The translations under genes were made by a program, and so were the position numbers. A model generated the notes under the pieces. The model did no database searches. It had not been told where the DNA came from and saw only the letters and a program-made list of their open reading frames with translations. Shown one piece after another: positions 4,340-51,788 of a DNA stretch of 64,000 nucleotides. The stretch covers positions 214,525-278,524 of the forward strand of contig CAWBOC010000007.1 in assembly GCA_963790305.1 (NCBI GenBank), written 5' to 3'. This stretch comes from an uncultured Gemmatimonadaceae bacterium. Its GTDB lineage: Bacteria; Gemmatimonadota; Gemmatimonadetes; Gemmatimonadales; Gemmatimonadaceae. Within the stretch, counting starts at the first letter, position 1, and each line of letters opens with the position of its first letter.

Positions 4340-4408
4340 GAATACGGAGTGCGGAATGCGGATTGATGTGGTGTCCAAATAGTTTCCGCATTCCGCATCC
4401 CGCATTCG
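4340..4408. repeat. inverted 7-mer tandem repeat hairpin, family C (GAATGCG)n..(CGCATTC)n
   Basis: between convergent stops at 4337 and 4411. Confidence 0.85.
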
Positions 4409-12357: not shown

Positions 12358-13023
12358 CTAGGCGAGCGAGAGGAACTGCCGCAGGATGCGCTCGGTCAGC
12401 CCCCAGATGGTGTGAGCGCCATGCTGAAAGCTCATCACCGTGCGAGGCCCCGTGGCGAGCTCGAGCACGACCTCACGCGAAACGTCCGGATCGCGCAGCG
12501 CGGCCACGTCGACCCAGAACCACTCGGCGACCTCGGGGCTGGCGACAATGTCGACGTCGAATCTCACCAAAGCGACAAAGGGCGTGATGATGATCGGTGG
12601 CAGGACGGGAGTGCGCGGCGCCAGCTCGTCGAGGCATCCGAGCAGGCGGCCATCACGCTCGAGATCGATGGCCGTCTCCTCCCATGTCTCGCGCACGACG
12701 GTGCGCTCCAGCGTCGGGTCGCCGGGCTCGCTGCGCCCACCGGGGAGCGCGACGTGGCCGCTCCACGGGTCGCCCTCGAACGTCGCGCGCTTGATCATGA
12801 GGAGTTGCGGCGTCGGCGGCTCGCGGGTTTCATCGAGCCTGACGAGGAGCGCCACCGCGGCCCGTCGCGAGGCATCCCCAGGATCGACGAGCGCCGGCGC
12901 CCTTCCCGCCATCGCCCGCACGAGCGGCGCGATCTCCGGATGCTGGGCGATCCGGTCAAGCTCGGTTCTCGTTCTCGTTTCCGTGTGATGCGGCACGCTA
13001 CCCCTCGATTTCTCCCCCCGCAT
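12358..13023 (-). CDS. Nudix CoA pyrophosphatase (NudL-like)
   Basis: WSGHVALPGG...TVVRETWEE, IWGLT. Confidence 0.9.
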   Translation of the reverse strand: MRGEKSRGSVPHHTETRTRTELDRIAQHPEIAPLVRAMAGRAPALVDPGDASRRAAVALLVRLDETREPPTPQLLMIKRATFEGDPWSGHVALPGGRSEPGDPTLERTVVRETWEETAIDLERDGRLLGCLDELAPRTPVLPPIIITPFVALVRFDVDIVASPEVAEWFWVDVAALRDPDVSREVVLELATGPRTVMSFQHGAHTIWGLTERILRQFLSLA

Positions 13024-13354
13024 CGACCCACGACTGAATGCCGCCGGTCATGGATGCGACATCGCCATATCCCATTTCACGCATGGTGTCGGCGGCGAGC
13101 GCCGAGCGATTCCCCCGGGCGCAGTAGAGCACGACTTTGCGCTCACGCGGAACCGCTCCTTCGATTTTCCCTTCGAGCGTCCCGCGCGCGACGTGCACCG
13201 CGCCCGGCAGATGCCCGAGATTCCACTCCCGATCCTCGCGCACGTCGATGATGGCAAAGTCCTCGCCGCGCTCGCGCATCTGGATGACGTCGCGGGCGGA
13301 GATTTCTTTGATGCGTGCTTTGGCGTCCTGGATGAGTTGGTGACCGGATTTCAT
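12998..13354 (-). CDS. rhodanese-like protein
   Basis: IDVRE..EW..GHLPGA, YCARGNRS. Confidence 0.9.
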   Translation of the reverse strand: MKSGHQLIQDAKARIKEISARDVIQMRERGEDFAIIDVREDREWNLGHLPGAVHVARGTLEGKIEGAVPRERKVVLYCARGNRSALAADTMREMGYGDVASMTGGIQSWVDAGGEIEG

Positions 13355-13359
13355 GATGT

Positions 13360-13399
13360 GAGGTTGTCGAGGTCGTCGAGGTCGTCGAGGTCGTCGAGG
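13360..13399. repeat. family A left arm flanking the four-helix-bundle gene
   Basis: GTTGTCGAG(GTCGTCGAG)x3. Confidence 0.9.
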
Positions 13400-13454
13400 G
13401 CGGCGCGCGGCGTTTTGATGCCGCGAACTCCGCTTATCTGCTCAATGCTAGCAC

Positions 13455-13872
13455 ATGAGTGCACCCGACCCTCCGAAACATGGGCACACGGCGACGCGAA
13501 CCCACCGCGATCTCGTCGTGTGGAGGGAAAGCATGCGTCTTCTCATTGAGGTTTATCACCTCGCCAAGGATTTGCCAACAAGCGAACTCTATGGTCTATC
13601 GTCGCAATTGCGTCGTGCGGCACTATCTATCCCGACTAACATTTCGGAGGGGTTCGGCCGGCGCGCGCCAGGTGAGTTGCGGCGCTTTCTATCGATCGCC
13701 GAAGGCTCACTTCGCGAGCTCCAAACATTGCTCGAGGCGGTAGCTCTCCTTTCATTACCTGCCTGCGGAAAGGCTCGAGGTGTCCGTGGCCACCGCCAAC
13801 CGCGTGGGATTCCTCATCTATCGATTCAGGCAGACAGTGAGGCCCAAGTGTGCGTCTCCCCGATCACCTTGA
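13455..13872 (+). CDS. four helix bundle protein (23S rRNA IVP / Avd-like family); +1 frameshift near 13750
   Basis: HRDLVVW.ES..L...VY.L...LP..E.YGL.SQLRRAA.SIP.NI.EG.GR....F..IA.GSL.E; removing one T gives LLHYLPAERLEV...LIYRFRQ...* ending at 13872. Confidence 0.85.
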
Positions 13873-13898
13873 CGACGTCGATCACCTCGATCACCTCG
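13861..13898. repeat. family A right arm flanking the four-helix-bundle gene
   Basis: (CGATCACCT)-type x4, reverse complement of the left arm; contains the stops of both convergent genes. Confidence 0.85.
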
Positions 13899-14811
13899 GC
13901 AGCACAGAAACGCTCCGCGCCCCAGCATCCAGCTCCCCCACCGCGCCCAGCGCCATCGTCCACTGCTCGCTCACGTGACCGACCGGCACCCCCGCGAGAC
14001 ACGGGACTCGCAACCAGTCGGCCAGCTCGAGCAAGACATCGTCGAGAGTTCGCGCGCCGTCGTCGGCCTCTTCGGGGCAATTGGTGCAGTCGCCAAAGAT
14101 GATGGCGCGCACGCCGTGCAGCGCGCCGGAGAGACGCAGCTGCGCCAGCATGCGATCAATGCGATAGACCGCTTCGTTCACATCCTCGAGCACGAGCAAC
14201 GCGCCGTCGAGGGGCGGGAGGTAGGGCGTTCCCACCAGCGCCGCGAATACGGCGAGATTACCTCCTTCTAATCGGCCGCGCGCCCGGCCCGGTCGGAGGA
14301 CGCGCGCACGTTCCGCCACCCCGCAGGAGTCTTCCCCGCGCATCACGGCTCGCTCCAACGAGGCGCGCGAGAACGGCGAGAGCGGCGTGCGCGCCGTCGG
14401 GGCGTGGTACGACACGATCCCTGCCTGACGAGCGATCGCGCCGTGCAGCGCAGTCACATCGGAATAGCCAAGGATGGGCTTGGCATGTCCGCGCAGCGCG
14501 CTCCAGTCGATGCGATCGAGCACACGCATCGCGCCATAGCCACCGCGAAGGCACCACACGCCATCAACGCGCCGATCGCGTAGCGCATCGTTGAGATCGG
14601 CCGCGCGCATCTCGTCGTCACCGGCGAAGTAGCCGGTGCGCGCGAGTGCATGTGGTGACACGACCGGTTCCCATCCGAGCGCGCGCACGTTCGCGATCGC
14701 GCGCTCGACATCATCGGGTCCACGGAGTGGGCCGGCGGGTGCGACGAGTGCGACGCGCGCACCAGCTCCGAGTGGTGGCGGTGCACGGCGCGCACTGGAT
14801 GCAACGGTCAT
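13891..14811 (-). CDS. ldcA: LD-carboxypeptidase, peptidase S66
   Basis: RGGYGA, GYSD.TAL, GGNL, LEDV.E..YRIDRML.QL, GH. Confidence 0.9.
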   Translation of the reverse strand: MTVASSARRAPPPLGAGARVALVAPAGPLRGPDDVERAIANVRALGWEPVVSPHALARTGYFAGDDEMRAADLNDALRDRRVDGVWCLRGGYGAMRVLDRIDWSALRGHAKPILGYSDVTALHGAIARQAGIVSYHAPTARTPLSPFSRASLERAVMRGEDSCGVAERARVLRPGRARGRLEGGNLAVFAALVGTPYLPPLDGALLVLEDVNEAVYRIDRMLAQLRLSGALHGVRAIIFGDCTNCPEEADDGARTLDDVLLELADWLRVPCLAGVPVGHVSEQWTMALGAVGELDAGARSVSVLPR

Positions 14812-15039: not shown

Positions 15040-15687
15040 ATGGCGGATCGCAACAAGGACCAGAATGAGGATCTCGGCTCGCAAGGCGGTCAGGGAGGAA
15101 TGAGCGGATCCCCAGGAGGTTCGCAGAGTGGATCGCTCGGTGGATCGCGTGGTGGCGCTGGTGGGCAGCAGGGCAGCTCACGGACCGGAAGCTCGGGCGC
15201 CGACAGTGAAGGCTTCGGTGCGTCAGGTGCCGGATCGACTGGTGGCGCTGGCGGTTCGAGTGGACGCAGCGGCGGCGCCGGCGGTTATGGCGCGTCGGGC
15301 TCCGAGAGCGACATCGATGACGAGAGCATCGGTGATGAAAGCTCAGGATCGGGCGGCGGGCTGAGCGGCAAGGATAAGGATCGCGGCGGCCAGGGTGGCG
15401 GCGGCGGCGGCGGTGGCCAGCGCGGCGGTGGCGGCGGTGGTCAGGGTGGTGGCGGACAGGGTGGTGGCGGCGGCGGCGGACAGCGCGGCCCCGGTCAGGG
15501 CGGCGGCGGTCAGGGCGGCGGTCAGGGCGGCGGCCAGGGTGGTGGCGGTGGACAGCGCGGCGGCGGTGGCGGTGGCCAGGGTGGTGGTGGTGGCGGACAG
15601 GGCGGCGGCCAGGGTGGTGGCGGTGGACAGCGCGGCGGTGGCGGCGGCGGAATGGGCGGAGGCGGCGGCCAGGGCGGCAATCGCTAA
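15040..15687 (+). CDS. Gly/Gln/Ser-rich intrinsically disordered protein
   Basis: GGAGGA RBS, GGGGQ(R) repeats, own terminator. Confidence 0.7.
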   Translation: MADRNKDQNEDLGSQGGQGGMSGSPGGSQSGSLGGSRGGAGGQQGSSRTGSSGADSEGFGASGAGSTGGAGGSSGRSGGAGGYGASGSESDIDDESIGDESSGSGGGLSGKDKDRGGQGGGGGGGGQRGGGGGGQGGGGQGGGGGGGQRGPGQGGGGQGGGQGGGQGGGGGQRGGGGGGQGGGGGGQGGGQGGGGGQRGGGGGGMGGGGGQGGNR

Positions 15688-15702
15688 CGCATCAGCGTTT
15701 CC

Positions 15703-15734
15703 AAAAGGGCGCCCTTGGGGCGCCCTTTTTTTTT
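15703..15734 (+). terminator. intrinsic terminator
   Basis: AAAAGGGCGCCC..GGGCGCCCTTTTTTTTT. Confidence 0.9.
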
Positions 15735-15781
15735 GCGCCCGGTTGCTCGCGCGCTCCCGCATGCGCTCGTAACTTCGCCGC

Positions 15782-18228: not shown

Positions 18229-18320
18229 GGGTGAGCGAGGATGTCGAGGATGTCGAGGGTGTCGAGGAGAGCAACGACGTTCCCTCGATCACGTCGACGA
18301 CCTCGACACCCTCGCCACCT
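18229..18320. repeat. family A hairpin (empty copy)
   Basis: (GATGTCGAG)n..(CTCGACGAC)n directly after the GT2 stop. Confidence 0.85.
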
Positions 18321-18497
18321 TTACCAAGGAACCTTTCCCACCTCCGAGGTGTCGAAGTATTCGGAAGCACACCTGCTTCCACCTCCGAGTGGAACCTCCC
18401 CGGTCGCGCCTGCATGGGTGGCCGGGGAGTTCCATTTTCGAGCCCCCACGCATTGCCTCGATGAGAGCGTTGCGCCGCGGGCAGTCTACCGTGGCGC

Positions 18498-21642: not shown

Positions 21643-23846
21643 CGCGGGAGTCCGCCGCCAGCGTGCGGGCACTCATCGCGAACGCCTGGCTGGCGCCCGA
21701 TGCGCCACAGACGTTAGGCAGCATCACGCTCCGTCCCCATCAGCGAGAGGCCGTGGCGCGGGCGCGTGTCGCGCTCGCGGCGCACGGTGGAGCGCTCATT
21801 GCCGACGACGTGGGCCTCGGAAAGACCTTCATCGCGCTCGCGCTCGCCGCGGAGGCGCAGCGCTCGCTCGTAGTCGGTCCGGCCGCGCTGCGCGCCATGT
21901 GGTCACACGCCTGTGCGCAAACCGGTGTGAACACGGAGTATCGCTCATATGAAGCACTCAGCCGGTCGCCGATGCCTGCGCAAGGCCACGACCTCGTCAT
22001 CCTCGACGAGGCGCATCACGTGCGTACGCCGCGGACTGCTCGTTACCGGCATCTCGCGCAGGGATTGGTTGGCGCCCGAGTGCTTCTCCTCACCGCGACG
22101 CCGATCCACAACAGCATTCGCGACCTGCGTGCCGTGCTGGCGCTCTATCTGGGCGCGATCGCCTGGGCGATCAATGAGGGTGAGCTTGCAGCACACGTCA
22201 TTCGACGAGAGCAGGAAGACGTGGGGTTCGACGCCCCGCTGCCCACGCTGGCGCCGCCTCGACCGATCACGCTCTCCAGCAATGACGACCTGCTCGACGA
22301 GATAATCTCCCTTCCGGCACCCGTTCCACCGCGCAATGGCGGCGACGGCGGCGCGTTGCTCTCGTTCACCCTCGCCAGATTGTGGGCGTCGAGTCACTTC
22401 GCGCTCCGTGCTGCCCTCCGCCGTCGCCTTCACAAAGCGCGGGCGCTCGAGGATGCGCTGGGCTGCGGACGTCATCCCACTCGTGGAGAGCTGCGCGCCT
22501 GGGCAATTGGCGACGACGCGACGCAGCTCGCCTTTCCCGAGCTTGTGGCGACGAGCGGAGAGGGCGACATCGGAGGTCTGTTAGGTGCGGTGGGTGCGCA
22601 CGCTTCCGCCCTCGAGACACTCATCCGGGCGATGCCGGTTGATTCCCCGCACGATCGCGAACGCGCGGACCGCATACGCGACATCGCGCTGAGGCATTCG
22701 GGCGAGAAGATCATTGCATTCACCCAGTTCGCGGACACGGCCACGGCACTCTTTCGCCTGCTGCGGGACTCTGTCCAATGCTGCCAGCTCGACGGGGGCG
22801 GCGCACGGGTGGCGGGCGGCCGTCTGTCCCGGCGTGAGGCACTCGCGCGATTCGCGCCGCGGGCGAGCGGAGCGGCGGAGCCGGCGGCGTCCGATCGCAT
22901 TGATCTGCTCATCACCACCGATCTCCTCAGCGAAGGAGTCAATCTTCAGGACGCCTCGGTGGTGGTGCACCTCGACCTGCCCTGGACCTCGGCCCGCATG
23001 GCACAGCGTGTTGGCCGCTCCCGCCGTCTTGGCGCCACCCATCCGTCGACCGTGGTTTATGCGATCGCTCCCCCGGCAGCTGCCGACGCGCTGTTGCGGC
23101 AGGAACAGCGGTTGCGCGAGAAGCTTCGCGCGGCAGCTCGTGTCACCGGCGCGTGCGGCGCGATCCTGCCCGTTAGGCTGGTGCTCGCGTCCGCGACCGC
23201 AATCGACGAAGAGAGCGCACCCACGCGCCACGCGCAGCTCCTTCGCGCGCTCCTCGCGCGCTGGCGTACCGGGCCCATCGCGAGTGCAGGGCCGCCAGGC
23301 GCGTACGTTCGCGCCAGTACGTCAGGCGCCCTGGCCCTCGTGAGGCAGGGATCCGAGCGTCTGCTCGTGGCGCTCGTGGATGGCCAGGTGAGTGGCCGCC
23401 CCGCCGACATTCTTGCCGCCGCGCGACTCGCCGATGGCGACGAGAATATCGAGGACGACGTCGATCGAGTCACGCCAGTTCTGACGAAGCTCGAGGCGTG
23501 GCTGTCGGCCCGCGCCGGCGCCAGCGTCGCCGGCGTCGGTCACACCATCGCCGGAGCGGCCCGGCGCGTGGCGATGCAGCGCATCGCGCACATCGCCGCC
23601 CGCACCCCGCACCATCACCGGGCGCAGGTCGCTCCCCTCGCAGCCGAGGCACGGCGGATTGTGACCGCTCCCTACGGGGTTGGCGCGGAGCGCATCCTCG
23701 CCGAGCTCGCTGGTTCTGCCCTGCCCGACGAGGCCTGGCTTCAGGCCGTCCGGGCATTCGGGGATGCGAACTGCAGAGGCGCTGCAGGCGCTAGAGGCGC
23801 TAGAGGCGCTGGGACGATTGAAGCAATCATCGTGTTCGAGCCGTAA
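21627..23846 (+). CDS. SNF2-like SF2 helicase
   Basis: LRPHQ, DDVGLGKT, DEAH, TATP, SEGVNLQ, QRVGR..R. Confidence 0.85.
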   Translation: MDGPLTRESAASVRALIANAWLAPDAPQTLGSITLRPHQREAVARARVALAAHGGALIADDVGLGKTFIALALAAEAQRSLVVGPAALRAMWSHACAQTGVNTEYRSYEALSRSPMPAQGHDLVILDEAHHVRTPRTARYRHLAQGLVGARVLLLTATPIHNSIRDLRAVLALYLGAIAWAINEGELAAHVIRREQEDVGFDAPLPTLAPPRPITLSSNDDLLDEIISLPAPVPPRNGGDGGALLSFTLARLWASSHFALRAALRRRLHKARALEDALGCGRHPTRGELRAWAIGDDATQLAFPELVATSGEGDIGGLLGAVGAHASALETLIRAMPVDSPHDRERADRIRDIALRHSGEKIIAFTQFADTATALFRLLRDSVQCCQLDGGGARVAGGRLSRREALARFAPRASGAAEPAASDRIDLLITTDLLSEGVNLQDASVVVHLDLPWTSARMAQRVGRSRRLGATHPSTVVYAIAPPAAADALLRQEQRLREKLRAAARVTGACGAILPVRLVLASATAIDEESAPTRHAQLLRALLARWRTGPIASAGPPGAYVRASTSGALALVRQGSERLLVALVDGQVSGRPADILAAARLADGDENIEDDVDRVTPVLTKLEAWLSARAGASVAGVGHTIAGAARRVAMQRIAHIAARTPHHHRAQVAPLAAEARRIVTAPYGVGAERILAELAGSALPDEAWLQAVRAFGDANCRGAAGARGARGAGTIEAIIVFEP

Positions 23847-23881
23847 GCGCCTCTAGCGCCTCTAGCGCCTCTAGCGCCTCT
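23776..23881. repeat. family B hairpin; left arm inside the helicase CDS
   Basis: (GGCGCTAGA)n encodes GARGARGA; right arm follows the stop. Confidence 0.85.
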
Positions 23882-27107: not shown

Positions 27108-27199
27108 CTAGAGGCGCTGGACGCGCTAGAGGCGCTAGAGGCGCTGAAGGGGTTAGCCCCCTCAGCGCCTCTAGCGCCTCTAGCGCATCTAGCGCCTCA
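27108..27199. repeat. family B hairpin
   Basis: between convergent genes; the WYL-gene stop lies at the arm edge. Confidence 0.9.
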
Positions 27200-33680: not shown

Positions 33681-33767
33681 GTGATCCAGGTTGTCGAGGT
33701 CGTCGAGGTTATCGAGGAACAAACCATTCACCTCGACTACCTCGATTACTTCGACGACCTGGATCAC
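33681..33767. repeat. family A hairpin (empty copy)
   Basis: GTGATCCAGG...CCTGGATCAC, 4 units per arm. Confidence 0.9.
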
Positions 33768-37120: not shown

Positions 37121-40100
37121 GTCGAGGCGGTCGAGGTCGTCCAGGTCGTCGAGGTGATCGAGGGAACGTCGCCTCGATTACCTCGACGACCTCGACGACC
37201 TCGAGCACCTCTTGCTACTCCGAGCTCCGCACCCACACCGGCTTCTCGTTCGGCGACGGCGCCACCACCCCCGAGCGGCTCGTTATGCGCGCCCGGCAGC
37301 TCGGCTACACCAGTCTCGGCATCACGGATACCACGGACCTCGGAGCGGTGCCTCGGTTCGTGACCGAGGCGCGGACGATCGCCAAGGATCCCGACTGTCG
37401 TCGCGCCGCGAGCCACGCCGACGAGCCCTGCCCCATCTGCGAGCGGCCGCTGCGGCCGATCGTTGGGGCGGAGCTCATCGTCGACGGCTATCCCGCCGCC
37501 TTTCTCGTTCGCGATGAGCGCGGCTGTCGCAATTTGGCCGCGCTGCTCACCTGTGCTCGCGTCGGCAGATGGGAGGAGTGGGAGAAAGCGGCGCAGGGAA
37601 AGCGGCGCGGGCATCCACAGGTAACGTGGGAGCAGCTCGCCGCTCGCAGCGACGGGCTGCACGCGCTCACCGGGCCGGCGTCTGGGGAGATCGCGTCACT
37701 CTTACGCGCCGGCGATGAAGCGGGAGCCGAGCGCGCGCTCGACAGATGGCGCGACGTCTTTGGCGCTCGGATCGCGATCGAAGCTCAACTCCATCACGTC
37801 GGCGGATCCGAAGCGATGCTCGCCGGGTCATTGATCGAGCTCGCCGAGCGTCGTGGAGTCCCGTGGGTCGTCGCGCACGATCCGCGCTACCTCGACGACA
37901 CGGGACGGCTCGTTCACGACATGCTCACGGCGCTTCGTCACGAGATGGATCTGTCGACGGCCGCCGAGCGCGGCGTCTTGCGACCTAACGGGGAATGGCG
38001 ATTGATCGCGCCCGCGCAGATGGCGCGCCGGTGGCGAGGCCGAGCGGAAGGGCTGCGCGAGAGCCAGCGGATCGCCGAGGAATGTGAATTCGATCTGCGA
38101 TGGATGCGTCCGCCGCTTCCGCACTACCCCGTCCCGGAGCGTAACGACGACGACTCGTATCTCCGCGAGCAGACCTACGCCGGAGCACACGAGCGGTGGG
38201 GCACCACGCTTTCCGACGCACAGACGCATCAGCTCGAGCACGAGCTCGCCCTCATCAAGCAGCTCGGCTTCGCTGGATTCTTTCTCGTCATGTGGGACGC
38301 CATGCAGTTCGCCCGTGAACGCGGAATCCTCTCCCAGGGACGCGGCAGCGCCGCCAACTCGGCGGTCGCGTACTGCCTCGGCATCACCGCCGTCGACCCC
38401 GTCAAACATGGCCTGCTGTTCGAGCGCTTTCTCTCCGAGATCCGCGCGGAGGGGGGCGCTGAAGCGCCGGACATTGACGTGGACATTGAGCACGACCGGC
38501 GCGAGGAGGTGCTCGACTACGTCTATGCGCGCTACGACCGCGCGCACGCCGCCATCGCCTGCATCGTCCAGACGTACCGCGCGCCCAACGCCGCGCAGGA
38601 CGCGATGCGGGCGTTAGGCTACCCGCCGGAGATGATGTTCGCGATCTCGAAGCGCGTGCACCATCACGAGCCGGCGGCCGGCGCCGAGTACATTCGCGAG
38701 AGCGCCGCGGCGCGCGCGGGAGTCGACATCACTGACCAGCGCGGCCGCACCCTGCTTGCGGCAATGGCCGGCTTCGAGGGACTTCCCCGGCTTCGAGCGA
38801 CCCACGTCGGGGGCTTCGTCCTCTCCTCCGCCCCACTCGGCGACTACCTGCCGATCGAGCAGACGACGATGGGGCGGACGATCGTGCAGTTCGACAAGGA
38901 TGATCTCGACGCGGTCGGCGCGCCGAAGTTCGACTTCCTGGGGCTGGGGGCGCTGTCGCAGGTGCGCCGCGCGTTCGACGTCATTGAGCGGCGGACCGGC
39001 ACGCGTCCCGAGATGTATCGGCTGCCGCAGGATGATGCGAAGAGCTACGACCTGATCGCGCGCGGCGAGACGATCGGGATGTTCCAGATCGAGAGTCGCG
39101 CGCAGATCGCATCGATCCTGCACACGCGTCCGGCATACCTGTACGATCTCGTGGTGCAGGTCGCGCTCATTCGGCCCGGGCCGATCCAGGCGAAGTTCGT
39201 TCACCCCTACACACAGCGGCGCCTCGGTCTCGAGAAAGTCGTGTACGCGCACCCGGCGCTCGAGCCGATTCTCCGGCGCACCCAAGGCATTCCGATCTTC
39301 CAGGAGCAGGCGATGGCGATCGCCATGGCGCTCGGCGGCTACACGGGCTCCGAGGCGGACGAGCTGCGGCGCACGATGGGGAACCAGCGAAAGAAGGATC
39401 GTCTGCTTCGATCGCTGCAGCGGCTGGCGCATCGCCTCGTCGAGCACCAGATCGACGAGCGCATCGCATTGAAGATCTGCGAGGACCTGCAGAGCTTCGC
39501 GAATTACGGCTTTCCCGAATCACATGCCTGGAGCTTCGCGCTCATCGCGTACGCGACCGCCTGGCTCAAAGCGCACTATCCAGCGGAATTCTATGCCGGC
39601 TTGTTGAACTCGTGGCCGATGGGATTCTATCCCGTCTCGACGCTCATCCACGACGCGCGACGCCATGGAGTCGAGGTGCGGCCCGCCTGTCTTCGCGATG
39701 GCGATTGGGAATGCACGGTGGAAGAGACCGGCCAGCCCGACCGGCCGGCCATGCGCATCGGATGGCGGCACATCCGCAACGTGGGGACGAAGCTGCTCGA
39801 TGCGCTACGCGCGAGTCGCAGCGATTCCCCCTGGACCTCGATCGCCGATGTCGTCAGGCGCACCCGACTCATTCGCAGTGATGCGCTGTCGCTGGCACGC
39901 GCGGGCGCATTCGGCGCCTGGGAGCCCGACCGGCGCCGCGCCGCCTGGCAGGCACTGCACGCCGTGGGAGACGTGCTTCCGCTCGCCCCAGCGCGGATGA
40001 CATCACACGATCCGCCGCCCCTGGACCCGTTGCAGCTCATCTTTCTCGACTATACGACGACAGGGTCGAGCATCCATGGGCATCCCATGCAGGCGCTGCG

Positions 40101-41251: not shown

Positions 41252-41375
41252 CTAGGGGTCAGGAGTCAGGGATCAGGGGGGTCAGGGAATGGGTGACAGG
41301 AGAACGGCTCGCGCGACCCCTGAACCCTCTTCCCTGACACCCCCTGATCCCCGACTCCTGACTCCTGACCCCTAG
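41252..41375. repeat. inverted 7-mer tandem repeat hairpin, family D (GGAGTCA)n..(TGACTCC)n
   Basis: CTAGGGGTCAGGAGTCAGG...CCTGACTCCTGACCCCTAG; overlaps the 3' end of the Reeler-like gene. Confidence 0.85.
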
Positions 41376-51655: not shown

Positions 51656-51778
51656 CTAGGGGTCAGGAGTCAGGAGTCAGGGATCAGGGGGTTTCAGGGC
51701 TCAGGTGCGAGGAGCCTGATTTGAACTCCTGTTCCCTACGACCTGACACCCCCTGACCCCTGACTCCTGACTCCTGAC
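51656..51778. repeat. family D hairpin
   Basis: CTAGGGGTCAGGAGTCAGGAGTCAGGGATCAGGGG...CCCCTGACCCCTGACTCCTGACTCCTGAC. Confidence 0.85.
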
Positions 51779-51788
51779 ACCTTTTCAA

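Follow-up and report, generated by a model that had tools for sequence, protein, structure and literature searches.

Families made up of short, non-autonomous copies with inverted ends and rare gene-bearing copies are familiar from MITEs and insertion sequences (IS). To our knowledge, no source is known for abundant families of heptamer repeats that have been described, and the protein family PF05635 has solved structures, no known function, and no known catalytic activity. In the RAYT/REP(IN) systems, as described in the relevant sections of PMC2817692 and PMC3686654, a single-copy gene is flanked on both sides by an abundant extragenic repeat, the two copies being inverted, orthologues at a fixed locus carry flanking repeats that change jointly ("orthoswitch"), and pseudogenes are frequent. 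The intervening sequence (IVS) of the Coxiella 23S rRNA is closed by a terminal stem of 28 bp that RNase III cleaves and carries its ORF in sense orientation, and the part of PMC4990558 that reports this also cites ORF-bearing 23S rRNA IVSs in Leptospira. Avd, which belongs to DGRs, engages all five of its protomers in binding an RNA stem-loop (10.1101/2023.10.23.563531, in excerpt), and passages of PMC3936711 and PMC10053308, in which arms do not figure, report PF05635 genes in the vicinity of cas genes and DGRs and note the resemblance of the family to Avd. Intergenic heptamer arrays (GGGAATC) near stops and starts were described for Xanthomonas in PMC4692102, with 70 inverted-pair cases among 186, and were read as quadruplex formers; neither "S23" nor "helix" appears in its main text, and a PF05635-type gene goes unmentioned in the passages of PMC4679880 on a direct-repeat heptamer family. 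We found no paper linking the PF05635 gene family to inverted tandem arms, with subscription journals largely outside the full-text search.

Here, we analyzed a window, i.e., the whole stretch of 64,000 nt at G000:C7:214525-278524, from the genome of an uncultured Gemmatimonadaceae bacterium (G000; 4.3 Mb, 13 contigs, 94% complete). The host operon is encoded on the minus strand, with ldcA (LD-carboxypeptidase family, 13891 to 14811, start inferred) upstream and a rhodanese gene (12998 to 13354) and a CoA pyrophosphatase-like Nudix gene (12358 to 13023) downstream. The first-pass annotation had reported an IVP/Avd-like gene between inverted 9-mer arms, antisense within this run and more AT-rich than its neighbors, and all of this was recovered: a plus-strand gene matching the four-helix-bundle models PF05635 and TIGR02436 (E values of 2e-26 and 7e-28) has a GC content of 58%, versus 63 to 69% in the neighboring genes, and is enclosed by two arms, here named family A, of four 9-mer units each. 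The left arm (13363 to 13398, +) consists of GTTGTCGAG followed by three copies of GTCGTCGAG; the right arm (13859 to 13894, +), separated from it by 460 nt, is an imperfect reverse complement with GTGATCGAG-type variants. Both arms contact a host gene, as only 8 nt separate the outer edge of the left arm from the start codon (ATG) of the rhodanese gene and the right arm supplies the ldcA stop codon (13891 to 13893, minus strand). Overlooked by the earlier annotation was a frameshift after codon 99, near position 13750, which splits the enclosed gene (13455 to 13872, +) into the first 99 codons (13455 to 13751) and, by comparison with intact orthologues, a last helix in another frame (13753 to 13872) whose stop codon lies within the right arm.

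A search of positions 13200 to 14000 against Rfam gave zero matches, and scans of the cassette for consensus promoters and terminators called none. The motifs TTGATG and AATGCT right before the start codon (13415 to 13457), repeated by eye in several orthologues, are possibly a leaderless antisense promoter. The inner unit of the right arm, GAGGTGATC (within 13859 to 13898), also present in other family A arms, is the exact complement of the organism's 16S 3' end, so that in family A arms an extended Shine-Dalgarno sequence pairs with a mimic of the anti-SD. Beyond the cassette, a glycine-rich low-complexity ORF region (15040 to 15762) lies upstream of a dicarboxylate-symporter-like gene.

The enclosed gene scored 97 bits in the profile search against a curated cutoff of 33.8, and 92 against 24 with a second profile, PF05635 being the only family matched; the intact orthologue of the genus relative G005 reached 112 bits. 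A structure model of the latter (pLDDT 92.7) has four helices and matches PDB 2GSC (E = 1.7e-8, rmsd 1.0). This entry, XCC0516, is also the sequence-nearest solved structure (E = 1.4e-24), followed by BT_0352 and Avd, and Avd superimposes on the model with an rmsd of 2.0 over 109 columns at 13% identity. By analogy with XCC0516 and Avd, the protein is probably a pentamer. Over 82 codons, synonymous changes (30 and 36) exceed changed codons (16 and 13), which indicates that the gene is under purifying selection, and PF05635 is widespread, occurring in 51 of the 61 genomes sampled in Gemmatimonadaceae alone. Four of the six PF05635 genes in G000 are frameshifted, compared to about four background frameshifts in about 33 kb (P = 2e-4 to 8e-4), and decay is a likelier cause than sequencing error within hairpin-enclosed DNA.

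Genome-wide, family A comprises 89 short-loop copies and a single long copy, the ldcA cassette, while a codon-block-shuffled genome contained none. The four short-loop copies noted earlier in the window are present at 1364 to 1434, 18231 to 18310 (just past a stop codon), 33681 to 33767, and 37127 to 37208. Empty hairpins of sister families accompany them, namely, family C (GAATGCG) at 4340 to 4407, family B (GCGCTAGAG) at 23788 to 23877 and 27123 to 27195, and family D (GGAGTCA) at 41255 to 41372 and 51659 to 51781. Loops are shared among family A copies, with one 10-mer seen 11 times, suggesting that the elements are copied as units. All six PF05635 genes of G000 are enclosed by inverted periodic arms, and the unit differs for each gene; the corresponding families A to F have 89, 48, 80, 84, 8, and 18 empty copies, respectively, and shuffles yielded 0. 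With arms drawn by abundance, the probability of six different families is 0.002. The genome contains eight long arm pairs, of which six hold a PF05635 gene and two another small ORF, so the genome-wide scan for arms and their contents did reveal the enrichment that the first-pass annotation had anticipated. Three minor families lack a PF05635 copy and number 4, 1, and 4 copies. A de novo scan recovered 331 periodic hairpins, nearly all of types A to F, and every large periodic family in it had a gene, families A to F being defined via the genes' own arms and thus in a partly circular way.

The two long arm pairs with other ORFs, at C1:50612-50877 and C7:189542-189910 of G000, hold by eye a lipoprotein-like repeat peptide and a short heavy-metal-domain-like ORF and represent a possible capture of host genes. 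Arms of their own also surround four GxxExxY genes (PF13366, PD-(D/E)XK fold) at C5:638951, C5:66, C9:843253, and C5:741840 (L219 to L222), and three of the arm families also have short-loop sisters, about 20, 12, and 12 in number; these genes and arms may form a parallel system with a nuclease-fold master. As an obligatory partner, the GxxExxY nuclease was ruled out by several genomes with PF05635 and without PF13366 (8 and 0 genes in G019, 10 and 0 in G024, and 5 and 0 in G084). REP-like doublets occur in family C and D loops, nested inside the periodic arms (e.g., C10:293923 and C6:364091), though no RAYT was found; they take the forms GTAAGACC...GGTCTTAC and GGAAAGG...CTCATCTGATGAG...CCTTTCC, the latter common to D and GGGCCA arms. 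Finally, an IS3-like element sits inside a CGCGGAT-type hairpin loop with near-identical arms at two loci (C7:4662-6075 and C12:2462-3874), which suggests that hairpins are IS targets or travel together with IS.

Among nine genomes of the genus, repeat-family abundance mostly tracks the presence of a cassette with the same arms, with exceptions; the nine are kin, and on a tree from about 1 kb of sequence the coupling comes down to some five or six independent events. Counted as overlapping pattern hits rather than elements, and with hairpins undercounted in fragmented assemblies, GGGCCA arms gave 38 to 147 hits in five genomes with such a cassette and 0 to 1 in four without, CTGCG arms 154 to 464 in three with and 0 to 17 in six without, and GTGCTCGAG arms 79 and 98 in two with and 0 to 23 in seven without. 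The family A hairpin was found 0, 0, and 1 times in three genomes whose ldcA cassette carries other arms. For AACGAGG, the coupling fits G005 and G008 and fails both in G004 (38 hits, no such cassette found) and in G001 (2 hits, cassette with a degenerate form), and CAGGGTGCT is a misfit as well, with 11 hits in G000, which has no such cassette, and 2 in G003, which has one.

From the genus, 55 rows were examined, 53 with sequence on both sides, and in all 53 the best periodic tract had the same period on both sides, a measure without a control that was weak on one side in about 10 rows. At 28 loci from other genera, the inverted-repeat score was at least 15 in 20 cases, versus a maximum of 12 among 60 control genes. 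Samples of 200 kb from the wider family contained 13, 2, 0, and 0 periodic hairpins in four gene-positive genomes and 1, 1, 0, and 1 in four gene-negative ones, a weak and mixed contrast, so the gene is no guarantee of a large hairpin family. In a protein tree that excluded broken copies, and in which the N terminus of row L006 is probably out of frame, proteins with the same arm type cluster across different loci.

At the ldcA-rhodanese junction, the cassette was seen in seven of eight genus relatives; the contig of the remaining one, G006, breaks off where the rhodanese gene begins. The cassette is intact in G001 (split over two contigs), G002, G003, G005, and G007 and broken in G004, and in G008 it has suffered an internal deletion with retention of the arms, so that loaded, broken, and internally deleted states were found and no fixed gene without arms. 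The arm units vary by species, both arms switching together, and are of GTCGAG type, GTGCTCGAG (G002 and G007), or CAGGGTGCT (G003). Nine close metagenome contigs had upstream sequence: five are loaded and intact, two end inside the cassette, one is too short, and one (L179) carries an unrelated gene-less hairpin. In nine genomes of other genera, ldcA abuts the rhodanese gene without a cassette, with a short heptamer-like run in G020. The cassette thus entered the ancestor of the genus, and at this junction it has since been passed on vertically, with no recent jump.

At other sites, orthologous junctions stay occupied while the family swaps. Ten sites have a cassette in relatives and none in G000, and at nine of them an empty hairpin or half arm was seen by eye in G000. 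At 40 syntenic sites bearing a G005 or G008 element of a family rare in G000 (two more clusters lacked a flank), a periodic stem is present in G000 in 31 cases, versus 12.5 expected by junction class, and 0 of 200,000 simulations reached 31. Arms and loops are exchanged wholesale, mostly to a related family (GGGCCA to D, AACGAGG to C), where the units differ by one or two bases, and sometimes to an unrelated one. In the window, the site of the element at 1364 is occupied by family A in G008 and G001, by a GGTCCTCAG hairpin in G005, and by another short hairpin in G003, and the family A element at 33681 stands in place of an AACGAGG-type heptamer hairpin found in all five relatives examined. 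The site of the empty hairpin at 37127 holds a gene-loaded heptamer cassette of family D in G004, G005, G006, and G008; the G008 cassette is 90% identical to the cassettes of another site and 71% identical to the same-site cassette of its sister G004, which points to a whole-cassette copy-over. At 18231, an insertion is common to G000, G005, and G008, with a clean absent site in G001 and G003. Insertion, replacement, and copy-over were seen among the elements, and the ldcA cassette, for which mobility had been proposed, was inherited vertically without a recent jump. After the element at 18231 follows a conserved non-coding block (18330 to 18420; GGAAGCAC...CTTCCACCTCCGAGTGGAACCTCCCCGGTC...GGCCGGGGAGTTCC), nearly unchanged in four of four relatives and followed by a DNA methyltransferase-like gene, which may be a structured RNA.

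Compared with the described systems, the cassettes most resemble RAYT/REP, with which they share several gene-repeat pairs per genome, an abundance tied to the cognate gene, and frequent pseudogenes, as far as the sections of the RAYT papers cited above go. The first-pass annotation had drawn this analogy, a loaded copy with empty non-autonomous sisters, and it gained support from six of six genes with a family of their own, an abundance that mostly tracks the cassette, and visible turnover. Unlike in RAYT, however, the cassette gene belongs to PF05635 and is no HUH Y1 transposase, and unlike REP, the family A arms are tandem 9-mers (7- to 9-mer arrays across families) without a GT(A/G)G head, GTAAG-headed doublets being solely nested in some C and D loops. 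Family replacement at orthologous empty sites, as seen here, does not feature in those sections of PMC2817692 and PMC3686654. A RAYT or reverse transcriptase acting in trans found no support, as G000 (94% complete) had no match to the Y1 transposase model PF01797, which matched 6 of 14 controls, or to the reverse transcriptase model PF00078. The cassette system works like RAYT/REP, yet it is no member of it.

MITEs and IS offer a second parallel, in that the internal deletion in G008 made a loaded cassette nearly empty. In contrast to these, the loaded copy has no transposase, and gene boundaries and existing hairpins are strongly preferred. A target-site duplication was not visible at 18231, the sole clean present/absent site, in comparison with G001 and G003, species that are far apart, and no conserved end motif of the elements was seen. 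With rRNA IVSs (S23p/IVP), the cassettes share the same protein family within a terminal stem, a size of about 430 to 540 nt, and a GC content below that of the host, as judged from the Coxiella report in part; unlike these, they lie between protein genes and have periodic arms and many gene-less sisters. The flanking protein genes and the absence of Rfam matches around the cassette rule out identity with an rRNA IVS. DGR Avd (PDB 4DWL, 8UB7) has the same fold and is, according to the excerpt cited above, a nucleic-acid stem-loop binder. The cassette differs from a DGR in having no template or variable repeat, and identity with a DGR was ruled out, given its housekeeping neighbors and a genome in which no reverse transcriptase was found.

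A further parallel came from Xanthomonas. The supplement of PMC4692102 lists GGGAATC repeat no. 15 as overlapping the start of XCC0516, without an inverted partner. Our genome scan for this repeat gave 21 loci; in 17 of them the XCC0516-orthologous gene follows, with an inverted arm that runs up to the ATG of accC, at the accB-accC junction. Judging from this arrangement, XCC0516 is very probably the loaded copy of the Xanthomonas GGGAATC repeats and belongs to the same element class, although its gene is sense to the operon, unlike the antisense gene in the ldcA cassette of G000.

One gene per family, sites at gene boundaries and mostly at stop codons, and the gain, swap, and overwriting of sites were all observed, and on balance we favor, with reservations, a RAYT/REP-like system of masters and empties that is copied at the DNA level with host enzymes. 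Counting against the role as masters, four of the six G000 genes are frameshifted and their families are still large.

The position of the elements bears on a different reading, in which the hairpins are transcript boundaries selected by the host (for termination, stabilization, or translational coupling), the protein is a domesticated, RNA-binding reader, and turnover is due to ordinary host recombination. With about 4,030 genes called by a home-made caller, an element end lies within -12 to +15 nt of a stop codon in 236 of 336 cases, whereas chance would give 7% on a per-base and 33% on a per-junction basis; 181 elements lie between co-directional genes, 111 between convergent and 36 between divergent ones, and 7 inside called genes. 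Elements occupy 343 of 4,017 gene junctions (about 9%) in G000, and a periodic stem was present at 37 of 70 sampled convergent junctions. This placement, the retention of cassettes at one locus through the genus and at the Xanthomonas accB-accC junction, and the RNA stem-loop binding described for Avd are as expected of a regulator. However, on the transcribed strand of co-directional cases, G-U oppositions (171) are no more preferred than A-C oppositions (166), which gives no sign of one-strand RNA selection and speaks against RNA-level selection on the stem. Moreover, the genes are frequently broken or deleted, and six parallel families per genome with wholesale replacement of arms and loops fit selfish turnover better, so that we regard a domesticated regulator as unlikely.

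Alternatively, the hairpins might owe their spread solely to replication slippage and gene conversion in the host, with the gene as mere cargo; its arms would be converted like any other site and hence resemble the abundant families. Conversion between families at sites, the one or two bases that separate related units, and gene-positive genomes without empties are in line with this, as are the facing units, which match slightly above chance (P = 0.017 for A and 0.0002 for D), as expected under arm-to-arm repair. Such a passenger role would, however, leave unexplained why six of eight long arm pairs surround one gene family, why each gene has a different family and same-arm proteins group across loci, and why the protein is conserved, and we consider it rather improbable.

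RNase III domains (PF14622, PF00636) were found in none of eight genomes searched (G000, G001, G003, G004, G005, G008, G010, and G023, four of them 98 to 100% complete), with matches in 8 of 14 controls; the lineage may thus lack rnc, and long hairpins could accumulate in consequence. Excision of the cargo from the operon mRNA after arm pairing, as in 23S rRNA IVSs and as the first-pass annotation had suggested, is in keeping with the minimum-energy fold of the minus-strand RNA, which pairs the arms and loops the gene out (z = -2.4), with the protein family shared with rRNA IVS ORFs, and with the RNase III-cut stem of Coxiella, but it is very improbable given that no RNase III was found with two models, that mismatches have no strand bias, that about one-third of the elements sit between convergent genes, which are not expected to share a transcript, and that at 10 of 11 distinct co-directional sites the cargo runs antisense to the host genes, unlike the sense ORF of Coxiella.

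Under the favored master-and-empties reading, a cassette built on an Avd-like four-helix-bundle protein would be the master copy for a family of non-autonomous hairpins. We infer that the protein would recognize the stem-loop form of its own arms, be it in DNA (single-stranded or cruciform) or in nascent RNA, and would stabilize the arms or pass them to host repair and recombination enzymes. These enzymes, in turn, would place a copy of the element at a gene boundary or overwrite a hairpin already there. A family with an intact master would expand, whereas one that has lost its master would decay, and the hairpins are probably tolerated or used by the host as transcript boundaries.

Going one step further, and more tentatively, the Avd-like pentamer might be the specificity factor of an unrecognized class of mobile DNA that has no transposase or reverse transcriptase of its own and directs host enzymes via periodic hairpin arms to gene boundaries and resident hairpins. 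If so, this would account for unexplained heptamer families in many bacteria, including the GGGAATC repeats of Xanthomonas; rRNA IVSs and the Avd of DGRs would be offshoots, and the GxxExxY nuclease-fold genes a parallel system. The present analysis contributes the rule of six genes with six families, a test of site replacement, a case of copy-over, the finding that RNase III is missing, and a link to Xanthomonas. The rule of one gene for one family ties PF05635 to heptamer repeats and gives each protein a predicted ligand, and if the protein drives the spread of its family, this would be a mode of mobility without a recognizable transposase.
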